IMG/VR virus record: IMGVR_UViG_3300024520_000444 | Location: 1-25,883 of that record | DNA: 25,883 bases | Strand: one strand, 5' to 3' | DNA from: a virus | Taxonomy: Duplodnaviria; Caudoviricetes | Shown: in pieces, positions 88 to 18,195 of the stretch | How the letters are laid out: each line of letters starts with the position of its first letter | Position numbering within the stretch: the first letter of the stretch is position 1 | Translations under genes and position numbers: made by a program | The notes under the pieces: generated by a model | The model's input: the letters and a program-made list of their open reading frames with translations, nothing else | Database searches by the model: none | Told to the model about the DNA's origin: nothing

Positions 88-1080
88 CTAGTTATTTGCA
101 GACATATCCTTAACCAATTGGTTAGCATATTGTTCTGGCGTTACCCCAAGACGCTTTGCGAGGGCGACTTGAGTTGCTGTAAGCTGTACTTTGCGTGGTT
201 TTGCACCATTATTGCGTGTAGCAGGTGCAATCACGGAACTTTGGGAATTAGAGCTTACAGCTTCTTTTTCTTGACTCCCAAAGAAATCTGGAAATACTGA
301 CTTCATTCTTGAATCTATTCTTTCATAGTATTCATCAGAAGCAGGATTAATGTTTTCTTCTCTTACTAATTTTTCATGCACACCATATGCAAAGCTAGTC
401 ATTTCAGGATCATTACCAAACCATTGGTTTTTTGCTTGCCATGAAATTGCTTTATCATCAGGTCTTGGTGGCACTTGTTGTTGAGGAACAAACTGTTCTT
501 GTTGTTGTGGGACAAATTCTTCCTCTGGAATCCTTGCATTAAATTGTTCAGCACTAGCCGCATCCATAGTTGCTCTAGTTAAAGCCTCTTGAGCAGACAT
601 AATTTGTTCAGCATTTCCATCTTCGTATGCTTTTTTATATCTTTCTTGTGCAGCTTGTTTAGCAAACTCTGCTCTTTCTTCGGCTTGTTTCCCAAGATAT
701 TGCTGACCATCATTAACCAATCGGCTTAAACGATCATTTTCAGACTTTATTTGCTGTGCATATTTAATTGCTTCATCACGAAGTTTTGCAGCTTGTTCTT
801 TCTGCCTTCTTTCTTCGTGGTGTTTTGCTGTTAGTTGATCAATTCTTTTTTGAACGCCTTTATCAACATTCAATATTTCTTCATCAACTGGCTTGTCTTT
901 AACATCTTCAGCAAAAACCTTTTCTTTCTTTTCGGGTTTTGTTTCAACATCATCGACAATTTCAATATCAATTTCATTTTCAGAGTCAACAACCTCATCT
1001 GGCTTAGAGCCAATCCTAGATTTAATACCTAAAAATTTCTGTTCTGTACTCATTGTAGAGTTTTCGTTAGTATCGCTCAT
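88..1080 (-). CDS. Putative capsid scaffolding protein
   Basis: 330 aa, acidic and coiled-coil-like, C-terminal LTATQVALAKRLGVTPEQYA; position after portal/GroES in the head module. Confidence 0.6.
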   Translation of the reverse strand: MSDTNENSTMSTEQKFLGIKSRIGSKPDEVVDSENEIDIEIVDDVETKPEKKEKVFAEDVKDKPVDEEILNVDKGVQKRIDQLTAKHHEERRQKEQAAKLRDEAIKYAQQIKSENDRLSRLVNDGQQYLGKQAEERAEFAKQAAQERYKKAYEDGNAEQIMSAQEALTRATMDAASAEQFNARIPEEEFVPQQQEQFVPQQQVPPRPDDKAISWQAKNQWFGNDPEMTSFAYGVHEKLVREENINPASDEYYERIDSRMKSVFPDFFGSQEKEAVSSNSQSSVIAPATRNNGAKPRKVQLTATQVALAKRLGVTPEQYANQLVKDMSANN

Positions 1081-1448
1081 ACTTTTTCTATCCCTCTGGG
1101 ATCATCAACCACTGCTTCGACACTATCATCATTAATGATGCGAAATTCTTTCCCATGAATCTTAATTCGAGTGCCACTAAATGCACGAAACACAACAAAA
1201 TCTCCTTTGGAACACCAAGCTCCAGTAGGAAAACGTGATTCGTCTTTGTAACAATCAGGTCCCATTTTTAAAACAAAACCTGTAATAGTGGCTACTTCTT
1301 CATTGCGAATGGTTTCATCCGCTTTCAAAATACCGCCTTCGGTTTTATCTTCTTTTTCAGGGATTGCAATTAGGATTCTATATCCTGTGGGTTCTGGCAA
1401 CTGTGTTGCCTCTTTCTTTTCTTTCTCTATATCGAGAGCAGTATTCAT
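1077..1448 (-). CDS. groES: Co-chaperonin GroES (Cpn10)
   Basis: PEPTGYRILI..KTEGGIL..GFVLKMGPD..GDFVVF..GTRIKIHGKEFRIINDDSVEAVV fits Cpn10; ATG at 1448 follows an AGAGG SD. Confidence 0.9.
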   Translation of the reverse strand: MNTALDIEKEKKEATQLPEPTGYRILIAIPEKEDKTEGGILKADETIRNEEVATITGFVLKMGPDCYKDESRFPTGAWCSKGDFVVFRAFSGTRIKIHGKEFRIINDDSVEAVVDDPRGIEKV

Positions 1449-1509
1449 GACCACCTCTTTGCACGAAATTATTAAAGGTTTTCGAGTTACCTTGCGGCAC
1501 TATGCCGAT

Positions 1510-6425: not shown

Positions 6426-7921
6426 TAGTAATACTCTGCTTTACCTGCGTAAAAAGGTTCATCTTCTTCATCGGAGTAAAGACTGACAAATCCACCTTGT
6501 CTAAATCTTAATAAAGCCTGAGTGCTTGAATCCACTAAATCGTCATGCTCTGCATTCGGAAAAGCCGCAAACTCTTCAATGACCTCATCTGCCCATCGGG
6601 TTTCCGGTGCCCAGACTATTCCAGTTGCAAACAAATCTGCAACCGCATTCACTCTTGCTATTTTATCGTTCCCTCTCGATGGGCTAAATTCTGATACAGG
6701 AATCCCCATTGATCTCAATTCAAAGATTAAGGGTGTTCCTGCGGCTTTCGACTCGACAATGAACGCATCGGGTTCATACTTCTGCCATGTCTTATAAGCC
6801 ACTTTTTTCAGTTCTGGAAACTCCAATCGTTCTTTAAACGCATCGAGCAAAATCAAATTGGGAGCCATTCTCCCATCTTCATCGCCTGTGTAAAACACTC
6901 CCCATGTCGTGCAAGCCGAATAGTCGGCACGCTGTGTTTTAAGAAATGCGGTGTCCCAAGACTGAATTAAAAACTCACAATGCGGTGGTCGATCTTCTTC
7001 CCATCGATTCCACCACTCTCTTTTAACCAATGCACCTTCTTCACTGGTTGGGTCTTGCTGATATTGTGCAGACCATTTTGAAACAGGAAGCTCTTCTTTA
7101 AGGGCTTCAAGTTCTTCTATCTTCCAAAAGCCGGGCCAAAGTGACTTGCCTGAAGGCAGGATTGCAGGAAACTCAATGACTCTCCATTCTTCTCCGCCAC
7201 GCTTCATACTGGTTTTCAATAGGTTTCCAGTCAAATCTCGTTTGTGCCATCGGGTCATTACCACCACAATCGCACCGCCCGGTTGTAAACGCTGACGAGG
7301 ACCTGAGGTGTACCATTCAAAAGTCTTATCAAATACTTTGGGATCGGCACTTGCACCTTCCTGCTCTGAGTGTGGATCATCAATGATTAATAAATCCGCA
7401 CCTTTACCAGTTACAGCACCGCCAACACCAATCGCAAAATACTCACCGCCTTTGTTGGTATTCCATCGACCCGCAGCTTTACTATCGGCTTGCAGGTTTA
7501 CAGTATCAAATATCTTTTGGTAATCCTTTGAGCCAACCAAGTTACGCACCTTTCTACCGAAACCCACTGAGAGTTCTGCGGTGTGTGCAGTCTGAATCAC
7601 CTTTCCTTCTGGCTTGTGTCCTAGAAACCACGCAGGCAACAAATAAGACGCAAACTCACTCTTGGTATGTCTAGGGGGCATATTGATAATCAAACGCTTT
7701 AAATCGCCATTGACAACACGACCAAACTCTTCAGCCATGATCTTGTGGTGATCCCCTTCTATAAATGCGGGCCAAACCGACTTCACAAAAGTAATAAAGT
7801 CACCCTGACAGTCTTCTCTAAACTTGGCTTTTTGTAATTCTTCGAGTTGTTTAAGCAACTCCAGCTTCTCATCGTAAGAAAGATTGCTGATATTCTGTAT
7901 TGTTTGTGAATTAATCTGCAT
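6425..7921 (-). CDS. terL: Terminase large subunit
   Basis: INMPPRHTKS (Walker A variant), LLIIDDPH (Walker B), VMTRW, nuclease QSWDTA..ADYSA, C-terminal HDDLVDS. Confidence 0.95.
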   Translation of the reverse strand: MQINSQTIQNISNLSYDEKLELLKQLEELQKAKFREDCQGDFITFVKSVWPAFIEGDHHKIMAEEFGRVVNGDLKRLIINMPPRHTKSEFASYLLPAWFLGHKPEGKVIQTAHTAELSVGFGRKVRNLVGSKDYQKIFDTVNLQADSKAAGRWNTNKGGEYFAIGVGGAVTGKGADLLIIDDPHSEQEGASADPKVFDKTFEWYTSGPRQRLQPGGAIVVVMTRWHKRDLTGNLLKTSMKRGGEEWRVIEFPAILPSGKSLWPGFWKIEELEALKEELPVSKWSAQYQQDPTSEEGALVKREWWNRWEEDRPPHCEFLIQSWDTAFLKTQRADYSACTTWGVFYTGDEDGRMAPNLILLDAFKERLEFPELKKVAYKTWQKYEPDAFIVESKAAGTPLIFELRSMGIPVSEFSPSRGNDKIARVNAVADLFATGIVWAPETRWADEVIEEFAAFPNAEHDDLVDSSTQALLRFRQGGFVSLYSDEEDEPFYAGKAEYY

Positions 7922-8404: not shown

Positions 8405-8644
8405 TCACAGTTTCTTGTCAAGGGATTTCTGCGTGAGGTGGGCTGGTCGGAGGGTTCGATGCCCCTTTTTTAGTAAAATGCCCTTAGAAACAAGCTCATC
8501 CACTAAGGAATGCACCCATCCCACGCTTTTTACACCCAAATTCTCCGCAATTTCCTTGTATGTAGGCGCACAGTAGCGTTCAAGCCAGTAATTTTCCACA
8601 AACTCCAGTAAATCCGCCTGTTTTTTTGTTAAATTTTTTTCCAC
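8405..8644 (-). CDS. LexA-type winged-helix DNA-binding domain protein without peptidase domain
   Basis: LTKKQADLLEFV..APTYKEIAENLGVKS..VH..L.SKG resembles the LexA N-domain; GTG at 8644 with an AAGGA SD gives 79 aa. Confidence 0.75.
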   Translation of the reverse strand: MEKNLTKKQADLLEFVENYWLERYCAPTYKEIAENLGVKSVGWVHSLVDELVSKGILLKKGHRTLRPAHLTQKSLDKKL

Positions 8645-8873
8645 ACTAGGATTCCTTGAGCTAATTCCTGATAAATAAAGGTAAATGATACCAGAATGGT
8701 AGATCAAAGAAAAGAAGAAGGGGGGGGTCATAAAAATTGGGAATCTCTTGTGCAAAACTCTATTTACAATGAACTAGGAGTCCCAAGTGCGTGTAGGGGG
8801 GGTGTGGGGGTCGTATCTTCTTGATTTATGCGTGTACGCAAGGGGGGGGGTCTTTCTACTGGTGCGGATCGTT

Positions 8874-9468: not shown

Positions 9469-9496
9469 TTGTATGAATATACCCATTTGATATACT
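9469..9496 (+). promoter_or_regulatory. Sigma70-like early promoter
   Basis: TTGTAT-16 bp-TATACT with an extended -10 TG (TGaTATACT) at the head of the plus-strand unit. Confidence 0.6.
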
Positions 9497-9502
9497 TCTT
9501 AT

Positions 9503-10075
9503 GTTGAATATCGTTTATATTTAGAGTCTGATTCAACTGGATGATAAAGGGACAAGTCCAATAGGTTAATACCGCCAAGTAGATAAGATCAAGTCCTGAA
9601 GAAAGTCAGAATTTCTTGACCGAGTCGATGCGGTGGTATCGATAAAGTGAGCGCCTTTTAGGTATAAGTTTCACTGGGTAAAAAATGAGTTTGTAGATTT
9701 CTCGTTACTGACAATTCAAATCTAGGGCTGAAACAAATGCCAACAGCAAGGATGGGAATCCGAAAATGTAAGTCTCTAAAGGGGGACTTGGAAGCATCTT
9801 CGAGATAACTGAGATTCTTGAACCCGATAGCCAGTAAATTTTTTAGGAAATTTTTAGCAGTCGATGAAAGCAGATTGATAGTGATGTCATGGTTGCCGAT
9901 TCAAATATCAGGATGACTTAGATCATATCAAGAACATTAATTATCTTTATCTCGAAAGACAAGCGCCAAGAAAGCCAAGATGGAAATCATAATGAGCATT
10001 GCGAGGTCTATATGAATAGTCCTAAGAATTTATTTATAACTGGCGAGAGTGGGGTTTCTCCCCTCGCTCTCGCAA
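9503..10075 (+). ncRNA. Candidate large structured RNA (~570 nt)
   Basis: No ORF in the track; many local and long-range complementary segments, e.g. 9581-9599 with 9908-9946; starts at the predicted transcription start and ends in a GC-rich hairpin at 10043-10073. Confidence 0.55.
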
Positions 10076-10156
10076 TACAGTTTAGTTCGCCTTAATCATA
10101 TTCATAACGAGTGTGATTAATGGGAATTATCCCAATTCATAATAGGAGAAAAAATT

Positions 10157-10639
10157 ATGAGAAAAATTACTAAAGAAAGTTCAGAAGCATTTGTGAATTT
10201 CGAGCAATACAAGAAGTCCAATACTGAAGTAGCAATTAAGTATGGATATTCATCTTCAGATGAAATCGCTAGATTTTATTTGCATGGGAATTGTATAGCT
10301 GAAATCAATAGATCAACATTGCCTGAATGTCGGGGATTAAAATCTATTGAGATTGATCTATGCGGATGGCATACACCAACCACTAGAGAAAGAATCAATG
10401 GCATTCTTGATGCACTTCATTATGACTTTAAGATCGCTCAGAGAAATCATGAGCAAGTCTTGGTTAGAATGAAAAACGAGAATCAGCATTGTTATGTGAC
10501 TGATTCAGATTTTAGCTACAGTTGGGAACAGGAATTGAAACTATCTGACGATAGTTTTGATCCCGAATTTGCTAAGAAAGTTTTTGCATCTAGCGAGTTC
10601 GTTAGTGGCACTGATCTGAATGCAATAACTGACTTTTAA
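10157..10639 (+). CDS. Hypothetical early phage protein
   Basis: 160 aa, strong TAGGAG SD; LHGNCIA..GWHTPTTRERING motif. Confidence 0.8.
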   Translation: MRKITKESSEAFVNFEQYKKSNTEVAIKYGYSSSDEIARFYLHGNCIAEINRSTLPECRGLKSIEIDLCGWHTPTTRERINGILDALHYDFKIAQRNHEQVLVRMKNENQHCYVTDSDFSYSWEQELKLSDDSFDPEFAKKVFASSEFVSGTDLNAITDF

Positions 10640-10708
10640 ATCAACTGATGAGCCTGTGAAACTCAGGCGAAACCCAATCGAAAGGTTGGGTCTTGATAAT
10701 AACTTTCA
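10640..10708 (+). ncRNA. Hammerhead ribozyme 1, type I
   Basis: Stem I ATCAA/TTGAT, core CTGATGA, stem II GCCTG/CAGGC, GAAA, stem III CCCAATC-GAAA-GGTTGGG, GUC site (cut after 10692); loop II TGAAA can pair with TTTCA at 10704-10708. Confidence 0.92.
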
Positions 10709-10721
10709 TATGGAGAATCAA

Positions 10722-11201
10722 ATGAAAATAATAAATAAAAAATTCAATGTGCCTACATGGGAATTGATAGTTCACGATAACTATAAAGAATTTCTAACAG
10801 CACAAAATAAAACTTCTAAGTCTAGGCTTGATGAGGTGAATAAAGCAATCACCAAAGAAAGAAAAAGGTTGAAACAAATAATCGCTGATTATGAAGAATC
10901 AATAAATGATCTTGTTGCTTGTCGTAAAGAGTTCAAAAAAGAAATTGAACAGGTTGCGACTGAGTATAGCTTCAGAAGGAAAATCAATGCACTACTAAAG
11001 AAGCATAGCTATTTATATGTGTGTTGGAATGGTGATGAGGATGTTTATACAACTTGGGTTTACTCAGATGACTTTAGGGATGAATATGAACCTACAGGAT
11101 ATTCTGAAGATGATCCTTATTATGATGAACATTTCTGTGATGAATATGAAGAAGCATACGAGAGATGTTTGGTTTACATTAAGCATCACGAAAGCATTTA
11201 A
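10722..11201 (+). CDS. Hypothetical protein (coiled coil plus acidic C-terminal domain)
   Basis: ATG 10722 with a GGAG SD; the ORF-track GTG at 10656 lies inside the ribozyme. Confidence 0.75.
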   Translation: MKIINKKFNVPTWELIVHDNYKEFLTAQNKTSKSRLDEVNKAITKERKRLKQIIADYEESINDLVACRKEFKKEIEQVATEYSFRRKINALLKKHSYLYVCWNGDEDVYTTWVYSDDFRDEYEPTGYSEDDPYYDEHFCDEYEEAYERCLVYIKHHESI

Positions 11202-11220
11202 TAAATAACCAAAGGGGTTG

Positions 11221-11240
11221 AATATTGACCAGTCAATATT
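11221..11240. repeat. 20-bp palindrome copy 2 (perfect), within a longer hairpin at 11212-11249
   Basis: AAGGGGTTG-AATATTGACCAGTCAATATT-TGACCCCTT. Confidence 0.92.
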
Positions 11241-11248
11241 TGACCCCT

Positions 11249-11300
11249 TGCTGTATAGGAATGTAATTCCTACTGATGATTGCGAAAGCATGAAACAGCA
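11249..11300 (+). ncRNA. Hammerhead ribozyme 2, type III
   Basis: Stem III TGCTG/CAGCA, GUA site (cut after 11255), stem I TAGGAAT-GTA-ATTCCTA, CTGATGA, stem II T-TGC-GAAA-GCA-T, GAAA. Confidence 0.88.
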
Positions 11301-11332
11301 CCAATCTAATTTACATAACATAGGAGAAAATT

Positions 11333-12421
11333 ATGAGTAAATTAAAAGCTAGTGAACTAGTCGAAGTAATCTTACATAACTTAGAGAATGCATCGAACAG
11401 TGTGCCTTTCATAAAAGGAAGCCCCGCTATCGGTAAATCTTCTCTAGTCTTTGAGATTGCTCAGACTATTGCTGACAAATCTAAACTGAAACTGATCAGG
11501 GATCATAAGGATCGACCAATCTATAATGTGAAGCCAAAGAAAAATGAATTTGGTTTTGCTGATTTTAGGGTCGCCATGTATGAGCCAATAGACTTTTCAG
11601 GGTTGCCATATATCGATGATAAAACTGGCAGTCAGAAAAGAGCATTACTGGATAATCTGCCTACAGATAAAAACAGTAAAGGTCTTTTGTTTTTGGATGA
11701 AGTAGCCCAAGCAACTCCCGCTTTGCAAAATACGATTCGCCAACTGACTTTTGAAGGTCGCATTGGCACTGATTATGTTTTGCCTACTGGTTGGAAAATT
11801 ATCCTTGCGGGTAATCATTCAACCGATAGAGCGGGTGCACAAAGAATCTTGACTCACTTTCAATCTGCTTGTTTAACTTTGGAATTAGTTCCAGATACGA
11901 ACGAGTGGCTAGAGTGGGGATATGGGAATAATATTAATGCTGACATACTGGCATTCTTAACTTTCCAACCTCAAGAATTGCATCAATTTGATGCTAAGAA
12001 GGAGGGTGGATTTCCCGCACCGAGAATCTGGCATCAAGTAAGTGAGATGTTGAATGGTGATCTTAGACGATCACTGATACAGCCAGTCTTAGAATCTTAC
12101 TTGGGTGAAAGGGTTGCTAGAGAATTTGAAACTTTTTGTGCATTCCAAAATGAATTGGAATCGCCAACCAAAATTCTCAAAAGTCCAAAAACAGCAAAAC
12201 TACCTGAAAGGACAGAGTTGCAATATGCAAGTGTCGCATCTCTGATCAATGCGGTTGAAACTCCAAAGCAATTTGAAAATGCTCTGACTTATGTAGAGCG
12301 TTTTAATGCTAAAGAATATTCAGTTTTGTTTGTCAAAGCACTCACAACTAAAGAATCAAAATTCAAAGAGACTTCGGTCTTTATTGATTGGCACATTAAA
12401 AACCAAGATATCTTGGTTTAA
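11333..12421 (+). CDS. MoxR-like AAA+ ATPase
   Basis: Walker A GSPAIGKS, Walker B LLFLDE, ILAGN sensor, PAPR.W; VWA gene nearby. Confidence 0.85.
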   Translation: MSKLKASELVEVILHNLENASNSVPFIKGSPAIGKSSLVFEIAQTIADKSKLKLIRDHKDRPIYNVKPKKNEFGFADFRVAMYEPIDFSGLPYIDDKTGSQKRALLDNLPTDKNSKGLLFLDEVAQATPALQNTIRQLTFEGRIGTDYVLPTGWKIILAGNHSTDRAGAQRILTHFQSACLTLELVPDTNEWLEWGYGNNINADILAFLTFQPQELHQFDAKKEGGFPAPRIWHQVSEMLNGDLRRSLIQPVLESYLGERVAREFETFCAFQNELESPTKILKSPKTAKLPERTELQYASVASLINAVETPKQFENALTYVERFNAKEYSVLFVKALTTKESKFKETSVFIDWHIKNQDILV

Positions 12422-12518
12422 GTGGTCTAATCAAAACTTGATACACAATGGCACTACCTGATTTTTATCAGGGGATAAGGGTCTTTTTTGATTCTCCTAT
12501 ACCTTATTCGCCATTGTG

Positions 12519-12572
12519 TAATCCTCGTATGACATTAGTAGTCATGCCTGATGAGATACTTCGAAAGGATTA
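12519..12572 (+). ncRNA. Hammerhead ribozyme 3, type III
   Basis: Stem III TAATCC/GGATTA, CUC site (cut after 12526), stem I GTATGAC/GTCATGC, CTGATGA, 2-bp stem II GA-TACT-TC, GAAA; loop I AGTA is complementary to loop II TACT. Confidence 0.88.
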
Positions 12573-12611
12573 TGAATCAGTTAATTAACTTTTACTTATA
12601 GGAGAATAAAT

Positions 12612-13601
12612 ATGAGTAAGAAAAATAATGACAAGAAAACTGCATTAGCAGAATCTTGTGTGAAAGTTCAGGTCACTATAAAAACTTATAGTGGGATAAA
12701 GGCTGATACCAGTGCTAGAAATGAATTGGCAGATATTAAAAATGCCAACTCGGATTTAGTAAAAGTATCTAAGCATTTATTAGACCCTGAATATCTTAAA
12801 CCCCCAATTCAGGTTGGCAAACAATTCAGGAATCAAGTTATCTATAAGAAAACTTTACCTTGGATTGATGCTGACGATAAAGTTTTGGGTGGTGGCAAGT
12901 CATATGTCTCAGGAAACCGACAGGTGAAAAAAGGCGAATGGCGATTGCTACCCGCAACTGAATTGGAAGCGTTTGAGAAAGAAGTTAAGCGATATAAGAA
13001 AAACTTCGATGATGAGGTTGAAATTATATTGCGAGACTACTCAAAGAAAATCGAAGAAGCCAAGCAGAATCATGTTGGATTGGGTGATCTATTCAAAGAA
13101 TATGAATATCCAACACCTAATGATCTGCGAGATAGGTATATCTTTGATTATGAAATTGGAATCGTAAACGAGTTCAATCACAAAGATATTAGAGTGGCAA
13201 TATCTGAAGTCGCCAAATCTAATATCATTGCCAATCATAAAGAAGGCGAAGAAACTGTTAAGCAGAATGCCGATAAGCATACTGCAAAACAACTTGTTTC
13301 TAGCATCGAAAGATTGGCAAGTGGATTGGAAAAGTTTGATCCCAAAAACAAAAGCAAGAATCCATTAAGGGATAGTAGCTATAACGAGCTTAGAGATATG
13401 CTTGATTCAATAGATCAATATCTATTGGGTGATGATGATGATCTAAGATCAACTGTAGCTGACTTGAGAAAAGACATCATAGATGCAAAATCTCAAGACA
13501 ATCTCAAGAAGGATAACAAGGCTAGGAAATCCACAGCTAAGAAACTGAGACAGGCTGAAAAGAAGGTCAAAGTTTCTGACACTGCTAAAGGATTATTTTA
13601 G
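12612..13601 (+). CDS. Hypothetical helical protein of the AAA/VWA module (possibly DUF3150-like)
   Basis: 329 aa with strong SD; TLPW..RLLP..YPT motifs; lies between the ATPase and VWA genes; family call tentative. Confidence 0.65.
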   Translation: MSKKNNDKKTALAESCVKVQVTIKTYSGIKADTSARNELADIKNANSDLVKVSKHLLDPEYLKPPIQVGKQFRNQVIYKKTLPWIDADDKVLGGGKSYVSGNRQVKKGEWRLLPATELEAFEKEVKRYKKNFDDEVEIILRDYSKKIEEAKQNHVGLGDLFKEYEYPTPNDLRDRYIFDYEIGIVNEFNHKDIRVAISEVAKSNIIANHKEGEETVKQNADKHTAKQLVSSIERLASGLEKFDPKNKSKNPLRDSSYNELRDMLDSIDQYLLGDDDDLRSTVADLRKDIIDAKSQDNLKKDNKARKSTAKKLRQAEKKVKVSDTAKGLF

Positions 13602-13688
13602 TTTGGTGGGGAGTCGCAAGACTCCCCAACACCAACATCTCAGCTCCCTGAGAAATAAAAATATTTTTAGAAGGTTTAAATCAAAGCA

Positions 13689-13708
13689 AGTATTGACCAG
13701 TCAATATT
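13689..13708. repeat. 20-bp palindrome copy 3, within a longer hairpin at 13680-13717
   Basis: ATCAAAGCA-AGTATTGACCAGTCAATATT-TGTTTTGAT. Confidence 0.9.
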
Positions 13709-13762
13709 TGTTTTGATGTAGGCATTCTGTCTGCAAAATTTGTTTATATATAGGAGAAAATT

Positions 13763-15187
13763 ATGGATAAGCAAACAACTGCCAGTAAAGTGGCAGAACA
13801 CAACATCGTCAAAGCTAGAACCTCGATCATCCAAAAGGGTCATCTTGGTATGGCTTCGATGATTACTCCTTTGATTCTGAAAGAAGTTTCAAAGGATGTA
13901 TGTTCTACAATGGCAACCGATGGCACTCATATCTTTTGGTGTGAATCCTTTGTCAATGAATCGAGTCATGAAGAATTGGAATTCGTTCTAATGCATGAAG
14001 CGTTGCATTGCACTTGGGCACATCATCTCAGAAGAAATGATAGGAATCCTGAGTTATGGAATATCGCAACTGATTATGCAATCAATGGCGAGTTAAATAG
14101 ATCAGGTTCAATATCCTATTGGAAGATGCCAAAGGATGCATTGTATGACAGCAAATATGATGGCAAAACTGCTGACGAAATCTACGCTATATTGCTTCAG
14201 GAAAAAGATCAGAAAGATAAAGAAAATGATCAGTCTGATAATTCTTCTGACGATGGCGATCAATCCGATGGATCATCCGATGGTGATTCTGATGGTGATT
14301 CTAATGATCAAGATCAAAGCAATGGCGGTGATAAAAAAGATGGTGATGATTTGGCGAATGCTAATGAAGGTAAACCATCTAACACTAGCCAAGCGGGTGG
14401 TGTTTGGGATGCAGTGAGCCAAGATGGAAAACCATTAACCAAGCAAGAAAATATTGATGCTCAAAGAGAATTGGCTAACAAAGTCCGATTGGCTGACAGC
14501 ATGAGTCGATCTTGCGGTAGCGGTTATGACAATTCATTCAACCGAAGGGTGAATGAAATTGATGTGGAAACTGCCAACTATCTTGAGAAAATTCAGGATT
14601 GGTTGGTCAGCGTTTTCCCTGATCAAACATCTTGGAATCGACCACATAGAAACCATATATGGAAAGATTCTACTTACAAGAAAGGAAACTATCTTCCGAG
14701 TAGGGTCAGTTCAGTTATGGGTGGCACTTTGGCAATCGGTGTTGATGTATCAGGATCAACTTCTTATTACATGGATGGATTCATGTCTCAGATACAGGGG
14801 TTGGTTGAGCAATGCAACATTGAGAAGGTCAAAGTTTGTTGGTGTAGCACCATAGTTCATCATGACGAAGAAGGGAATTATTGGGATGAAGTTGACATCT
14901 CTGCGGGTGAATCTTTATTAGATATCACTCCTAGAGGTGGCGGTGGAACTGAATTAACTCCCATCTTTGAATTGGTGAATAACTATACCGATGATGTTGC
15001 TGACATACAGGGTCTAATTGTTTTTACTGATGGAGAATTTTACCCAGTAAAAGCAAAACATGAGCCTGATATTCCAGTCCTATGGGCAACCACTCGTATG
15101 GATTGGGGTGTGACTGAATCTGAGTTTGGGGAAGTAATCCATCTACCGCCCCATTGCCTAACAGCAGACTTAGATTTAGCTAGTTAG
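13763..15187 (+). CDS. HExxH metallopeptidase-like plus VWA domain protein (DUF2201-like)
   Basis: TMATDG, HEALH, WNIATDYAIN; acidic D/S/G linker; MIDAS-like DVSGS, GGGGT, FTDG. Confidence 0.88.
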   Translation: MDKQTTASKVAEHNIVKARTSIIQKGHLGMASMITPLILKEVSKDVCSTMATDGTHIFWCESFVNESSHEELEFVLMHEALHCTWAHHLRRNDRNPELWNIATDYAINGELNRSGSISYWKMPKDALYDSKYDGKTADEIYAILLQEKDQKDKENDQSDNSSDDGDQSDGSSDGDSDGDSNDQDQSNGGDKKDGDDLANANEGKPSNTSQAGGVWDAVSQDGKPLTKQENIDAQRELANKVRLADSMSRSCGSGYDNSFNRRVNEIDVETANYLEKIQDWLVSVFPDQTSWNRPHRNHIWKDSTYKKGNYLPSRVSSVMGGTLAIGVDVSGSTSYYMDGFMSQIQGLVEQCNIEKVKVCWCSTIVHHDEEGNYWDEVDISAGESLLDITPRGGGGTELTPIFELVNNYTDDVADIQGLIVFTDGEFYPVKAKHEPDIPVLWATTRMDWGVTESEFGEVIHLPPHCLTADLDLAS

Positions 15188-15353
15188 GATTGGTGCAAAA
15201 AGGGGGGTTTTAAGGGTATGTTATGCCCTTACTACCCCTCTAACTTTGCATTAGACGAGCAATGGTGAAGCCATTTTTTGTGAGATTCGTCTTAATAGCA
15301 TCATTTGGTGTTATTAAGGGGAATTATCCCAAACTCAAATAAGGAGAATTAAT

Positions 15354-15602
15354 ATGAGTGAACAATCATTAAAAGAAGTAGCAGTAAACCATGACGACAT
15401 TGAAAAACTAGAAACTGCCTTAGACTACATTATGTATGTGGCTAGAACAGGCGGTCATGTTTTTATGCCTGAAGATAAAAAAGACTTTAAGCCTTTTTTG
15501 TTAAGTGAGATAAAAAGATTTCTCAATGAAGTCATAGAGGATTGCATTCAGGAAAATCCTGAAGGTGCAGAAATATACAAACTAAAACCAACTGATGATT
15601 AG
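15354..15602 (+). CDS. Hypothetical protein; last codons overlap hammerhead 4
   Basis: 82 aa with an AAGGAG SD. Confidence 0.75.
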   Translation: MSEQSLKEVAVNHDDIEKLETALDYIMYVARTGGHVFMPEDKKDFKPFLLSEIKRFLNEVIEDCIQENPEGAEIYKLKPTDD

Positions 15603-15674
15603 CTGAAATGCTATGAAAGCCAATCGCAAGATTGGCTATTGGTGTCAGTGTAATGCTGACTAAATTAACTTTCA
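15587..15674 (+). ncRNA. Hammerhead ribozyme 4, type I
   Basis: Stem I ACCAA/TTGGT, CTGATGA, stem II T-TAGC-TGAAAT-GCTA-T, GAAA, stem III GCCAATC-GCAA-GATTGGC, CUA site (cut after 15638); loop II TGAAA can pair with TTTCA at 15670-15674. Confidence 0.9.
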
Positions 15675-15691
15675 TTTATAGGAGATAAAAT

Positions 15692-16336
15692 ATGAATGAG
15701 ATAATCGATGATCTAAAGATCAAAGAAAAAAACATTCACAAGCTGAAAGGATTTCTTGATGACAATAAGTTCTATGGAAAAACTACTGGCTTTGCTGAAA
15801 GTCTTTTCAAGCACTTTGAAAAGAGAGGTGAATTGTCTGACAAACAATGGCATTGGGTATTGAAACTTGTTGATCAAGTTCAGAATCCAAAGCAAGAAGA
15901 ACCTGAGAAAAAACTGCCTAATATAAATGGTGTTTATTCTCTGCTCAGACGAGCGGTATCACCAAAGAATAAATCATTCCCTAAATTGTGGTTAAGACTT
16001 GATGACCAAGATATAAAAATATCCAAAGCATCAAACAAGTCTAGGCACAGAGGAAAACTATTTCTCAGCAACGGGAAGTGGGGATATGAAAATATTTACT
16101 TTGGGCGTATCGAAACCGATGGCGATCTTTACTTATCAAAAGATGGCAAAGAGGTTCAGGAAAAACTAATCGATCTATTAAATAGATTGGTTAGTGATCC
16201 TGAGAAAGTCGCAAGTGAATATGGAAAACTCACTGGCAACTGCTTTGCTTGTCATAAACAACTGTCCGATGACCGATCTATTGAAGTAGGTTATGGGAAA
16301 GTTTGTGCTGATAAGTTTGGATTACGTTGGGGATAA
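15692..16336 (+). CDS. Protein with C-terminal DUF6011-like zinc finger
   Basis: YGKLTGNCFACHKQLSDDRSIEVGYGKVCADKFG. Confidence 0.75.
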   Translation: MNEIIDDLKIKEKNIHKLKGFLDDNKFYGKTTGFAESLFKHFEKRGELSDKQWHWVLKLVDQVQNPKQEEPEKKLPNINGVYSLLRRAVSPKNKSFPKLWLRLDDQDIKISKASNKSRHRGKLFLSNGKWGYENIYFGRIETDGDLYLSKDGKEVQEKLIDLLNRLVSDPEKVASEYGKLTGNCFACHKQLSDDRSIEVGYGKVCADKFGLRWG

Positions 16337-16341
16337 GTGAT

Positions 16342-16380
16342 GATATTGACTGGTTGTTTTAATAATGACCAGTCAATATT
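16342..16380. repeat. 20-bp palindrome copy 4 (16361-16380) plus an inverted partial copy (16342-16358)
   Basis: GATATTGACTGGTTGTT-TT-AATAATGACCAGTCAATATT. Confidence 0.88.
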
Positions 16381-16590
16381 TGATTTCTCGTATGGTTTCC
16401 CTATTTACGTTTTGATAAACACTCATTTTGGGTGATGTCTAGGCATTACCCGACATGAGAAAATGCATTAGAACGTAAATAAGGAGTCCATTTTTCCTAG
16501 AATTAGTATGAAAATGCTAGTTTTGGGTGGATTTCTATTAATGGGCGATTCATTCGCCTTAATTTAATCTTACTATATAGGAGACAAATT

Positions 16591-16893
16591 ATGAGTAAGA
16601 AAAGAACTGTGCCATCTTTTGTAGCAGATGCTTATTTAGAAGCATTAACTATTTATGGCTACGACACTATGAACCATGAAAAGTATTGCTTTTCTGTAGA
16701 TCACTTTATAGATAACTATAAAGAATTTGCCAAAGATGATTTCTTTTGGATATTTCATTCCAAAGAAGAAAGAGATTCTTTTGCTTTAGATTCTTACAGA
16801 GAAGAATTAAATTGCGATTTTACTTATGGAGAAGCCAAAGAATATTTAGATGGCTTGAAAGAAATCGATCTTGATAAGGCGGTGTCATCATGA
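16591..16893 (+). CDS. Hypothetical protein
   Basis: 100 aa with a TAGGAG SD. Confidence 0.75.
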   Translation: MSKKRTVPSFVADAYLEALTIYGYDTMNHEKYCFSVDHFIDNYKEFAKDDFFWIFHSKEERDSFALDSYREELNCDFTYGEAKEYLDGLKEIDLDKAVSS

Positions 16894-17075
16894 GTGCCGA
16901 AATTTTGATAGACGAACAAGATCAAGAAAATTGGAATGTAATTTTAGATGATCTTAGAGAGTCGGGAATAATCAATATGTTCGGTGCGCCATCTTGGTTG
17001 CAAGATAATTTTTGTGTTTCTAAAAAAGAATCGCAACAAATTTTCAACAACTGGACAGAAACTTACAATCGCTAG
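16890..17075 (+). CDS. Small hypothetical phage protein
   Basis: ATGA overlap with the previous gene; LDDLRESG.INMFGA motif. Confidence 0.75.
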   Translation: MSAEILIDEQDQENWNVILDDLRESGIINMFGAPSWLQDNFCVSKKESQQIFNNWTETYNR

Positions 17076-17094
17076 TTATAAATAAATAAAACTT

Positions 17095-17147
17095 GACCCT
17101 ATCGGTCTATGTCTTTTTAGATGTGGATCGGTAGGGTCTTTTTTTTT
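17095..17147 (+). terminator. Intrinsic terminator ending the early unit
   Basis: 20-bp stem GACCCTATCGGTCTATGTCT/AGATGTGGATCGGTAGGGTC (with G-U pairs) followed by T9. Confidence 0.9.
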
Positions 17148-17339
17148 GGTCTAAATTTTGGGGCAAATCTAAAATATTTTTACAGGGAGATGGCAAAAAG
17201 TGAAAATATTTTATTTTTGGTGTGGGAGCTGACGGGAGTTTTTCCAAAGCCGTGTAAAAACTAAAAATATTTTTTTACCCCAGCAACGAAAAGTTCTGCA
17301 TGGTTTGGTCGGTATATATTCCAACACTACCTTTAACTA

Positions 17340-17359
17340 AATATTGACCAGTCAATATT
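17340..17359. repeat. 20-bp palindrome copy 5 (perfect)
   Basis: AATATTGACCAGTCAATATT, intergenic. Confidence 0.92.
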
Positions 17360-17427
17360 ACACGCACTAAGATACCAAGAAGTTATTGTCATACTTATTT
17401 GGAGTTAGTCTTTTGATATCTTTATGA

Positions 17428-17455
17428 TTGCATTATTTGGTTAAATCATTATAAT
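17428..17455 (+). promoter_or_regulatory. Sigma70-like promoter
   Basis: TTGCAT-16 bp-TATAAT upstream of the 17491 ORF. Confidence 0.5.
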
Positions 17456-17490
17456 TTGTATTAAATATAAACGCATTCAGAGTAATTATC

Positions 17491-18195
17491 ATGAGTAAAG
17501 AAAAAGACATCCTAACACCATCACAGATTGAGCCTAATCTTCCTACAGATTATTCAACTCCTAGTGCTCACTGCAATCTGTCTGTTTTGCAAGAAGCAGA
17601 GGAAACAAACTCCATTCTAAAAACAAAAAACGAAGGTGCTGATCCTGAATATGTTGCCCTGTTGGATGAAAAAGGAAAGATGCAACAAGAAGGAGTATTA
17701 GCAGATAAGAAAAAAACAAGCAGAAAACCTTTAGACAGGCAAATTGTAGAGAAATTTCTAATCAATAGAGAGTTTAATATTGATGAAAAGAAAGGTCAGT
17801 ACATAGATCACAGAGGTCATGTAAGAACAGAAAAAGAAAGAAAATATCCTGTAGATGTTCATCTACTCAAAAAAATATGTGCTATGCATCCCATCGTAAG
17901 GAATGTTCACAAATTAGTAAACATTTGTGGCTTTCATAAAACAATGTATGCAAGACTCAGCCCCGCAAGTGCAACTGTTAGAAAAGCAATCAACAAAGAA
18001 ATGATGACAAAGATTGCTGAAATCTTAGAGCTAGATGACTGGAGAATTTTAATAGACCGAGAAGAATTAGATGCTCTGTCGAAAAAAGAGCAGAGGATAA
18101 AGCAGATAAAAGAAGATATGGAATCTTACAGAAGCAAAATTCAAGGCTTGCAAAAAGAATTAAAAAAACAAAAACGAGGAGTAAACGATGATTAA
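17491..18195 (+). CDS. Hypothetical protein, possible Cro/CI-like HTH plus coiled coil
   Basis: 234 aa; KLVNICGFHKTMYARL..INKEMMTKIAEILE loosely resembles an XRE HTH. Confidence 0.6.
   Translation: MSKEKDILTPSQIEPNLPTDYSTPSAHCNLSVLQEAEETNSILKTKNEGADPEYVALLDEKGKMQQEGVLADKKKTSRKPLDRQIVEKFLINREFNIDEKKGQYIDHRGHVRTEKERKYPVDVHLLKKICAMHPIVRNVHKLVNICGFHKTMYARLSPASATVRKAINKEMMTKIAEILELDDWRILIDREELDALSKKEQRIKQIKEDMESYRSKIQGLQKELKKQKRGVNDD

Follow-up and report, generated by a model that had tools for sequence, protein, structure and literature searches.

Hammerhead ribozymes occur in phage and bacterial DNA, where their role is still open (PMC6765202; PMC13725137). The closest described systems are the clustered hammerheads that flank single prophage genes, for which Perreault et al. 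(2011; PMC3088659) proposed a role in RNA processing and demonstrated cleavage both in E. coli and in vitro. According to the same source, natural hammerheads include versions with a U.U mismatch or with a stem II of only 1-2 bp. The idea that phage hammerhead arrays process mRNA is therefore not new, having been published in 2011 (PMC3088659). The initial annotation of the viral DNA studied here had likewise read four hammerheads as a device that cuts an early polycistronic mRNA; this is still the best reading and is partly supported by the results below, but it had a published precedent.

The window, that is, the whole stretch of 25,883 nucleotides analysed, contains the features collected in Table 1. 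A descriptor scan of both strands returned exactly four hammerhead sites (HH1 to HH4), all on the plus strand and none antisense, at the positions originally annotated, with 16-18 stem pairs in all per site. Among dinucleotide shuffles, 0/100 contained any hammerhead at a threshold of 15 pairs and 1/100 at 13 pairs; a relaxed scan of the window added no further site and gave one hit in 2/40 shuffles. Each of the four has the CUGANGA and GAAA core, the A15.1-U16.1 pair and an NUH triplet. The scan also reproduced the annotated types (two type I, two type III), triplets and cleavage positions: the predicted cuts lie 29, 77, 85 and 53 nt before the next start codon for HH1, HH2, HH3 and HH4, respectively, and HH2 and HH3 bracket the ATPase gene alone, in a unit covering 11256-12526.

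Table 1. Features of the early region, in window coordinates
Feature	Position	Strand	Remarks
Candidate sigma-70 promoter, extended -10	9469..9496	+	Read by eye; would head a ~620-nt non-coding leader
12-bp hairpin, 7-nt loop UUUCUCC	10043..10073	+	Loop complementary to next Shine-Dalgarno region
Motif B1	10085..10133	+	12-bp hairpin with C.U mismatch and lower stem, followed by small hairpin; probable RNase III target, cleavage predicted near 10121
Kyanoviridae gp96-like protein gene	10157..10639	+	PF23790, phrog_554
HH1, type I hammerhead	10640-10697	+	GUC; predicted cut after 10692; begins one base past stop codon
159-aa ORF	10722..11201	+	No family match
Long hairpin with G.U pairs	11213..11248	+	Around repeated palindrome; would cap 3' end of upstream product
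HH2, type III hammerhead	11249-11300	+	GUA; cleavage predicted after 11255; stem II with basal U.U
MoxR-like AAA+ ATPase gene	11333..12421	+	phrog_1297
Three-way junction, 21-nt loop 12481-12501	12443..12519	+	11-nt anti-Shine-Dalgarno 12491-12501, complement of 12597-12607
HH3, type III hammerhead	12517-12574	+	CUC; predicted cut after 12526; stem II 1-2 bp
DUF3150-like protein gene	12612..13601	+	Atlas clusters; no Pfam or PHROG match
~26-bp interrupted hairpin	13668..13729	+	Around palindrome; possible RNase III site; junction without hammerhead
DUF2201 metallopeptidase-like / vWA gene	13763..15187	+	Domain match
Motif B2	15285..15330	+	Second copy of RNase III-like hairpin; cleavage predicted near 15318
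82-aa ORF	15354..15602	+	HH4 takes in its last codons and stop
HH4, type I hammerhead	15587-15643	+	CUA; predicted cut after 15638; overlaps end of 82-aa ORF
6-bp hairpin directly after HH4	15644..15660	+	Would cap 5' end of downstream product; RiboJ-like layout
DUF6011 protein gene	15692..16336	+	Domain match
Intrinsic terminator-like hairpin and U run	17095..17147	+	Likely end of early transcript

Some of the annotated properties have to be qualified. The four sites are at gene junctions, but HH4 is not purely intergenic, because its core includes the last codons and the stop of the 82-aa ORF. They have three stems, but a U.U mismatch opens stem II in both HH2 and HH4 and stem II of HH3 is minimal. 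Finally, the statement that they do not stem from a recent duplication is only partly right: HH1 and HH4 are identical at 40 of 57-58 nt and are, on this resemblance, paralogous modules, and the same module recurs at different junctions in relatives. A further type I candidate at 10823 was dropped, as it emerged only with a loosened core and lies inside a coding sequence.

Three helices surround the core with covariation support, in a pair-type tally of 143 distinct hammerhead sequences for which pairing itself was required by the scan. In the HH3 family, both sides have changed in 10/18 pairs, a level reached by 0/500 shuffles. As regards the tertiary contact of stem I with stem II, pairing of loop I with loop II, including one compensatory pair, is predicted for HH3, a search in HH2 identified none, and loop II-leader pairing in the type I hammerheads (HH1, HH4) is not above shuffles family-wide (4.15 vs. 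4.32). Equilibrium folding assigns low probabilities to stem I of HH1 (0.01-0.08) and, within 100-nt flanks, to HH3 stems II and III (0.01-0.02). Ribosomes may also hinder folding, as HH1 begins right at a stop codon and another is overlapped by HH4.

The Rfam check suggested in the initial annotation was negative. The whole window gave no hammerhead match at E ≤ 1; a search restricted to a 3.4-kb stretch gave sub-threshold matches to HH1 only, HH4 stayed unmatched on 13500-17500 at E ≤ 10, and 17 related loci gave no usable match. The best hammerhead score was 21.8-22.5 bits, below the gathering scores of 48.5-56.3, and a control with RF00163 matched in 0/14 genomes. This outcome reflects a limit of the models and is extraneous to the definition of the hammerhead class. 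Rfam thus misses all these motifs, which implies that they are under-counted by standard annotation.

The synteny check covered related phage contigs. Among 66 loci with this ATPase module (602,902 nt), 63 carry at least one hammerhead, with 224 sense and 0 antisense copies in total; the loci are kin, so that these counts are not independent. Only 8/224 predicted cuts fall inside an ORF, though ORFs cover 87.5% of the span. Occupancy is 51/60 at the junction preceding the ATPase gene, 55/60 before the DUF3150-like gene, 34/54 before the vWA gene and 38/45 after it, and many inspected junctions without a hammerhead call have variant cores. At these fixed junctions, hammerhead type and core variant interchange. 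Indeed, in phages whose ATPases are 88-98% identical, the same junction may hold a hammerhead, with either a standard or an odd core, or else an RNase III-like hairpin. Unusual builds in the relatives include one hammerhead, at 6391-6474 of L001, with three tandem hairpins replacing stem II and a class that combines an AA insert with a hairpin hiding its own cut site; the three-hairpin and AA-insert forms may be undescribed builds. Type II calls in two loci (L009, L010) were re-read as type III. The locus belongs with the clustered phage arrays, in which several hammerheads flank single genes or short blocks of an operon. Hammerheads are absent from MoxR-like ATPase loci in two cultured phages and in three distant contigs, so that the protein module can do without them.

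The same distribution bears on the possibility that these ribozymes serve mostly as handles for recombination, or are selfish modules, and that the phage tolerates their cleavage without needing it. The same module does appear at different junctions, module boundaries are places where gene cassettes change, and contigs of the DNA run join or break at module positions. Against this, orientation is strictly sense (224 vs. 0), paired positions show compensatory changes, unrelated module types share one slot, and the catalytic core is retained in phages whose ATPases are only ~37% identical. Together, these features argue for selection on cleavage and make a mere handle quite improbable.

Two junctions of the window that lack a hammerhead have a covarying hairpin, motif B, shaped like an RNase III site (B1 and B2). 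Its alignment is 95.8% paired with 31 two-sided cells, which 0/500 shuffles reach. The 12-bp stem provides the helix of at least 11 bp expected above the site, and near the loop UA is found in 11/14 copies and UG in 13/14, UA/UG being the canonical E. coli RNase III distal box (PMC1540722); in the window, B1 has both and B2 has UG only. With regard to the G-C antideterminant at positions 2 and 4 of the proximal box, the window copies pass in both possible registers, and 4/14 copies have a G-C pair at the E. coli antideterminant position in one of the two. The rules used are those of E. coli; a host search among prokaryote genomes found no relative. Neither copy matches a twister, pistol, hatchet or HDV-like ribozyme model at E ≤ 10. 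The hairpin is present in 15/23 loci and missing in 8, and in 13/15 of the loci with it a hammerhead lies on the same strand less than 1.5 kb away. On these sequence features, B1 and B2 are likely RNase III sites. Moreover, the close relative L006 has motif B in place of HH3, and L007 has hammerheads in place of motif B at two slots, with a type III at the B1 slot. Cutting "without protein", as first annotated, is thus probably half true. Such swaps at one junction tie the ribozymes to T7-style processing.

The limits of the early operon are suggested by the candidate promoter, whose -10 element is the full consensus in 3/5 aligned relatives and which is not listed by a promoter scanner run on the region, and by the terminator-like hairpin. 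Within it, the 159-aa ORF has a same-slot homolog in 2/7 close relatives. The DUF3150-like assignment is a lead only, resting on Atlas clusters at 0.95-0.96 that carry DUF3150 in 12-25% of members. The interrupted hairpin that follows overlaps an alternative short hairpin (13717-13735), and distant relatives mostly have a hammerhead at that junction.

Taken as a whole, we consider it likely that the four hammerheads self-cleave and that, with the two hairpins predicted as targets of the host's RNase III, they would cut an early transcript of ~7.6 kb into hairpin-capped units of one to a few genes. Each junction would be a slot for a cutting module, filled in different relatives by type I, type III or odd-core hammerheads or by the RNase III-like hairpin. 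A type III module would have a strong hairpin upstream and start the downstream piece with its own stem I; with a type I module, stems II and III would stay with the upstream piece, and a hairpin often follows. Indeed, of 120 type III contexts, 92% have an upstream hairpin of -8 kcal/mol or below, and a downstream hairpin with z < -2 accompanies 60% of the 53 type I contexts vs. 9% for type III. The hairpins flanking the predicted cuts would cap both products. Irrespective of its upstream neighbour, each gene cassette would thereby gain ends that are standard and protected, as well as a half-life of its own, which would allow cassettes to be swapped freely.

Cleavage could instead mainly destroy or time-limit the early RNA, its pieces decaying faster so that early genes are shut off. 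Natural precedent exists in glmS, where cleavage is followed by decay (PMC6765202). The RNA evidence comes from one RNA run (share 0.07), as contigs of a relative that carry no molecule ends; contigs hardly cover 9.3-14.9 kb, in contrast to the late genes, which would fit early shut-off and is not proof of absence. One contig spans the HH4 cut and another spans B2, so that uncut RNA or DNA is present, a point against the processing reading. Destruction is nevertheless improbable in view of the hairpins at both predicted product ends. Furthermore, RNase E, in its 5'-end-dependent mode, acts poorly on 5'-OH substrates, and such ends do not seem to be phosphorylated in E. coli (PMC4191395), and the synthetic insulator RiboJ, with the same layout, is described as raising mRNA about twofold (PMC6206723). 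In one engineered E. coli system, cleavage in the 5'-UTR is reported to change neither stability nor expression (PMC5052635), which speaks against the stabilising role proposed above. Another fate of the ends, ligation of units released by paired ribozymes into circular mRNAs, was raised by Perreault et al. (PMC3088659), as 5'-OH and cyclic phosphate ends are ligatable. The cross-pairing needed for ligation by the ribozymes is no better than random, with a mean of 3.15 bp in 88 units vs. 3.37, and 1 bp for the ATPase unit; the same authors report detecting no circles (PMC3088659). Ribozyme-driven circularisation is thus rejected, and circular mRNAs are on the whole very improbable.

In addition to processing, cleavage may gate translation at some junctions. 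An upstream anti-Shine-Dalgarno (anti-SD) loop would block the next ribosome-binding site (RBS) until the RNA is cut, or the freed ATPase message would act in trans on early RBSs. The loop segment upstream of HH3 is an 11-nt perfect complement of the next RBS, is 97% unpaired, and is conserved in 8/8 close genomes while its closing stems vary, including L006, where motif B stands. A second such loop precedes B1; its 7-nt segment is kept in 7/7 genomes searched with differing stems, the loop being predicted narrower in L005 and L006. CUCCAA lies upstream of 31/31 AA-insert hammerhead copies vs. 0/224 others, and HH3 is predicted to refold after cutting, displacing stem III. Set against these points, no anti-SD loop is found at HH1, HH2 or HH4, nor in any of 52 type I contexts, and the 9/117 type III contexts with one (4.0 expected) include seven from one junction in close relatives. 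The next site ranks 1st to 8th among 7-13 early RBSs as a pairing partner, which does not support specific covariation between loop and next RBS; the HH3 loop pairs equally well with other early RBSs. The anti-SD 6-mer occurs twice in the region vs. 1.2 expected. A wider scan revealed no further phages with the loop beside a hammerhead, 10/17 matches being unrelated and 7/17 known relatives. Finally, nested refolding leaves accessibility unchanged on cutting at 6/6 sites, though this method cannot model an anti-SD/SD pseudoknot. We therefore regard gated translation as a tentative proposal that is rather doubtful. The same reserve applies to the combined picture of a loop-held SD freed by a hammerhead or RNase III cut, a freed ATPase message that may brake all early RBSs in trans, and undescribed hammerhead builds. 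In the parts of the literature covered, no natural anti-SD-gated phage hammerhead and no swapping of hammerheads with RNase III sites is described; the supplements of Perreault et al. (2011) may already list the association with these genes or the variants described here.

Compared with known systems, the hammerheads described here have the core and three-stem geometry of RF00008, RF00163 and RF03152, while scoring far below the gathering thresholds of these families. With the arrays of Perreault et al. (2011), as described there, they have in common mixed-type sense hammerheads around single genes, U.U mismatches and 1-2 bp stems II, and the proposed processing into single-gene mRNAs. Those arrays were assayed for cleavage, whereas the present ones are known from sequence; on the other hand, this array is traced over 63 loci, where it occupies fixed slots at junctions, is flanked by hairpins, swaps with RNase III-like hairpins and is joined by anti-SD loops. 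In phage T7, RNase III cuts an early transcript of ~7 kb at junctions into mono- or dicistronic units (PMC4858673), as proposed here, and motif B resembles the T7 sites in its 11-12 bp helix, UA/UG distal box and mismatch at the predicted site (PMC1540722, PMC3867540). Unlike in T7, where the cuts leave 5'-phosphate and 3'-OH ends, the RNA itself would catalyse most of the cuts here, with 5'-OH and cyclic phosphate as the resulting ends. The slot swaps among close relatives amount to natural swap experiments and give ready constructs for separating stability from translation gating. RiboJ combines a hammerhead, a hairpin and an RBS to give a standard 5' end (PMC6206723); HH4 has the same layout, but the modules here are natural, lie between genes and are of several types. 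Likewise, in engineered SD-masking hammerhead and twister switches (PMC5052635), the anti-SD is upstream of the cut and the SD downstream, as at HH3, whereas here the anti-SD is in a separate hairpin loop, would form a predicted pseudoknot and comes without a ligand sensor. If it works as predicted, this loop would represent the natural counterpart of a switch that the literature searches revealed only in engineered form.

A descriptor scan of both strands, covering 30 CUGANGA cores, recovered exactly the four hammerheads that the initial annotation had placed in the window (HH1 to HH4). Shuffling (100 shuffles, 15-pair threshold) gave none, and a relaxed descriptor scan of the window found no additional one. 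The Rfam hammerhead models, which had been proposed as a check, did not detect them; known natural hammerheads include ones with U.U opening stem II and ones whose stem II has just 1-2 bp (PMC3088659). Folded in isolation, HH1, HH2 and HH4 form all three stems, and HH3 shows stems I and III only in its centroid fold. In HH3, loops I and II are complementary, including one compensatory pair, and a seven-sequence alignment has two-sided changes in 10 of 18 pairs. Equilibrium folding with long flanks disfavours HH1 stem I and HH3 stems II-III, so that activity would require co-transcriptional folding or tertiary contacts. The four hammerheads are real and well supported, and most of them are very probably active.

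Coordinates of features in the window and in related phage loci (L numbers)
Feature	Position	Strand	Detail
HH1	window 10640-10697	+	type I; predicted cut after 10692
HH2	window 11249-11300	+	type III; predicted cut after 11255
HH3	window 12517-12574	+	type III; predicted cut after 12526
HH4	window 15587-15643	+	type I; predicted cut after 15638
Motif B (copies B1, B2)	window 10085-10133, 15285-15330	+	two hammerhead-free junctions
Terminase and portal genes	left of early block	-	family search
Primase-helicase, RusA and Sak genes	right of early block		family search
GroES-like gene	window 1077-1454		packaging/structural arm
LexA-like DNA-binding gene	window 8405-8755		family search
16-bp palindrome	window 9404, 11223, 13691, 16363, 17342, 18696, 20493, 23263, 25476	both orientations	nine copies
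HH2 ortholog, multi-hairpin	L001 6391-6474; L002 around 6886-6970; L006 around 6889-6973		
AA-insert type III-like hammerhead	L044 5852-5955		30 other copies
Core variants	L007 6069, 8220, 11670; L005 452; L055 3449; L090 4615		
Structured element 5' of AA-insert hammerhead	L044 5783-5860; L008 953-1030		no Rfam match

The virus record is linear, with a completeness of about 43%. The array sits in a + strand block running from a candidate promoter near 9490 (picked by eye) to a terminator-like hairpin (17095-17147), and coding in order for a gp96-like protein, a 159-aa ORF, a MoxR-like ATPase, a DUF3150-like protein (an identity that is an Atlas lead only), a DUF2201/vWA protein, an 82-aa ORF and a DUF6011 protein. 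We infer that the block is early from the genes it holds and where it lies. Its leader (9500-10040) is non-coding and has no Rfam match; a block near 9730-9790 is kept in 6/6 aligned genomes. Past the terminator, 17150-17365 carries repeated AT-rich palindromes, and a short high-depth contig of the single RNA run falls there. The 16-bp palindrome, with 0.15 copies expected in the window, in some cases lies directly 5' of ribosome binding sites (RBSs) or promoter-like sites, and is found within long hairpins 5' of type III hammerheads in 66 of 121 contexts; it is likely a DNA operator put to second use as an RNA hairpin.

Among 66 loci including the window (one per contig, duplicates removed; 602,902 nt), 224 hammerheads lie on the sense strand and none on the antisense strand. 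These counts are not independent since the loci are relatives, the distinct hammerhead sequences numbering 143. At least one is present in 63 loci, and the three hammerhead-free loci have ATPases just 21-28% identical. A hammerhead precedes the ATPase gene in 51/60 loci (38 type I, 13 type III), the DUF3150-like gene in 55/60 and the vWA gene in 34/54, and follows the latter in 38/45. Among 18 junctions inspected by eye, those within the family that the scan had missed mostly hold variant cores. Only 8 of the 224 cuts fall inside an ORF, the window's one being an artefact of an upstream GTG. Position and strand are thus kept across relatives while type and sequence interchange, as expected if selection acts on junction cleavage. 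The earlier view that the four are not a recent duplication holds at best for their age: HH1 and HH4, with 40 of 57-58 nt in common, are paralogous, shuffled modules. The HH4-type 5' half is found ahead of three different named genes, and phages with 98% identical ATPases differ in the gene cassettes between modules.

The same slots can hold motif B, a 12-bp hairpin; beneath it come a mismatch and a lower stem, and the 3' strand of that stem is able to refold as a small hairpin. In the relative L006 it occupies the slot held by HH3 in the other seven close genomes; in L007, type III hammerheads occupy both motif B slots. Across 14 copies, 95.8% of cells are paired, with 31 two-sided changes (0/500 shuffles). 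Its register relative to RNase III rules is uncertain by one pair; the favoured one, which we take partly from the T7 R1.1 stem, predicts 3' cuts after 10121 and 15318 and places an E. coli antideterminant in 4/14 copies. Close to the loop, its UA and UG pairs correspond to the canonical E. coli distal box, and the helix reaches the 11-bp RNase III minimum (PMC1540722; PMC3867540). Motif B is likely an RNase III site and very unlikely a new ribozyme. The junction after the DUF6011 gene (16340-16570) lacks a hammerhead; its several long, imperfect hairpins are possible further RNase III sites.

Type III hammerheads have a strong hairpin within 55 nt upstream (-8 kcal/mol or lower in 92% of 120 contexts; mean -16.6 versus -7.9 shuffled), and after cleavage the downstream piece would open with stem I. 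A hairpin lies 3' of type I in 60% of 53 contexts (z<-2) versus 9% for type III; HH4 has one and HH1 does not. In 43/52 cases type I cores overlap the upstream stop codon or start within 12 nt of it. HH4 matches the layout of RiboJ, an insulator that increases mRNA about twofold (PMC6206723), and RNase E, in its 5'-end-dependent mode, cleaves RNA with a 5'-OH end poorly (PMC4191395). On both grounds, we prefer to see the cleavage products as stabilised; in one engineered system, 5'-UTR cleavage had no effect (PMC5052635). Overall, the predicted cuts would probably process the message into end-protected units. Ribozyme-made mRNA circles are not supported by the analysis. Contigs of a relative in the single RNA run span the HH4 cut and B2, so uncut RNA or DNA was present; late genes are also covered.

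Several relatives carry variant hammerheads. Multi-hairpin HH2 orthologs have two additional hairpins (28 nt) between CUGAUGA and the pre-GAAA hairpin, with a compensatory change in L006; in known alignments inserts there never exceed 1-2 nt (PMC10085705), and these would, if active, be a new build. One core variant has an added base (CUGANNGA, 4 copies) and another A9 changed to U (6 pattern matches, 2 inspected); L007 holds seven hammerheads within 5.7 kb. In AA-insert hammerheads, AA separates stem II from GAAA and stem III has 3-5 bp; a competing hairpin masks the cut site and displays CUCCAA complementary to the downstream Shine-Dalgarno (SD) sequence, a possible switch. A conserved structured element lies 5' of this hammerhead in several distant loci.

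An alternative reading is that an anti-SD loop gates translation of the next gene until cleavage. Upstream of HH3, a three-way junction exposes a 21-nt loop in which 12491-12501 is complementary to 12597-12607, the next gene's RBS; the loop is kept in 8/8 close genomes despite changing closing stems (L007 being one base off in the anchored table), and a similar 7-nt loop precedes B1. In the AA-insert class of distant relatives, CUCCAA lies upstream in 31/31 copies versus 0/224 and sits in a covarying hairpin competing with stem III. However, gating does not look like the general rule: HH1, HH2 and HH4 have no anti-SD element, which occurs in 0/52 type I and 9/117 type III contexts, and a wider scan for the HH3-type loop found no further phages. 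Moreover, when the early RBSs are ranked as partners of the loop, that of the next gene comes anywhere from 1st to 8th; as the loop lacks RBS specificity, action in trans is also allowed. Gating is doubtful, and processing into end-protected units remains the preferred reading.

A hammerhead array as such is of a known kind. Perreault et al. (2011; PMC3088659) describe multiple hammerheads around single prophage genes, show that three arrays cleave in vitro and that one does so in E. coli, and propose that they yield single-gene mRNAs, an idea restated as unproven in a 2019 review (PMC6765202). Among the papers that our literature search reached, none deals with modules swapping slots or with anti-SD gating in nature; the natural module swaps make an old question about hammerhead function testable. 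The predicted window fragments are 622, 571, 563, 1271, 2792, 320 and 1509 nt, and a second cut may divide the 2792-nt piece at a long hairpin (13668-13729). This set is close in plan to the processing of T7 early RNA, about 7 kb long with five RNase III cut sites (PMC4858673).
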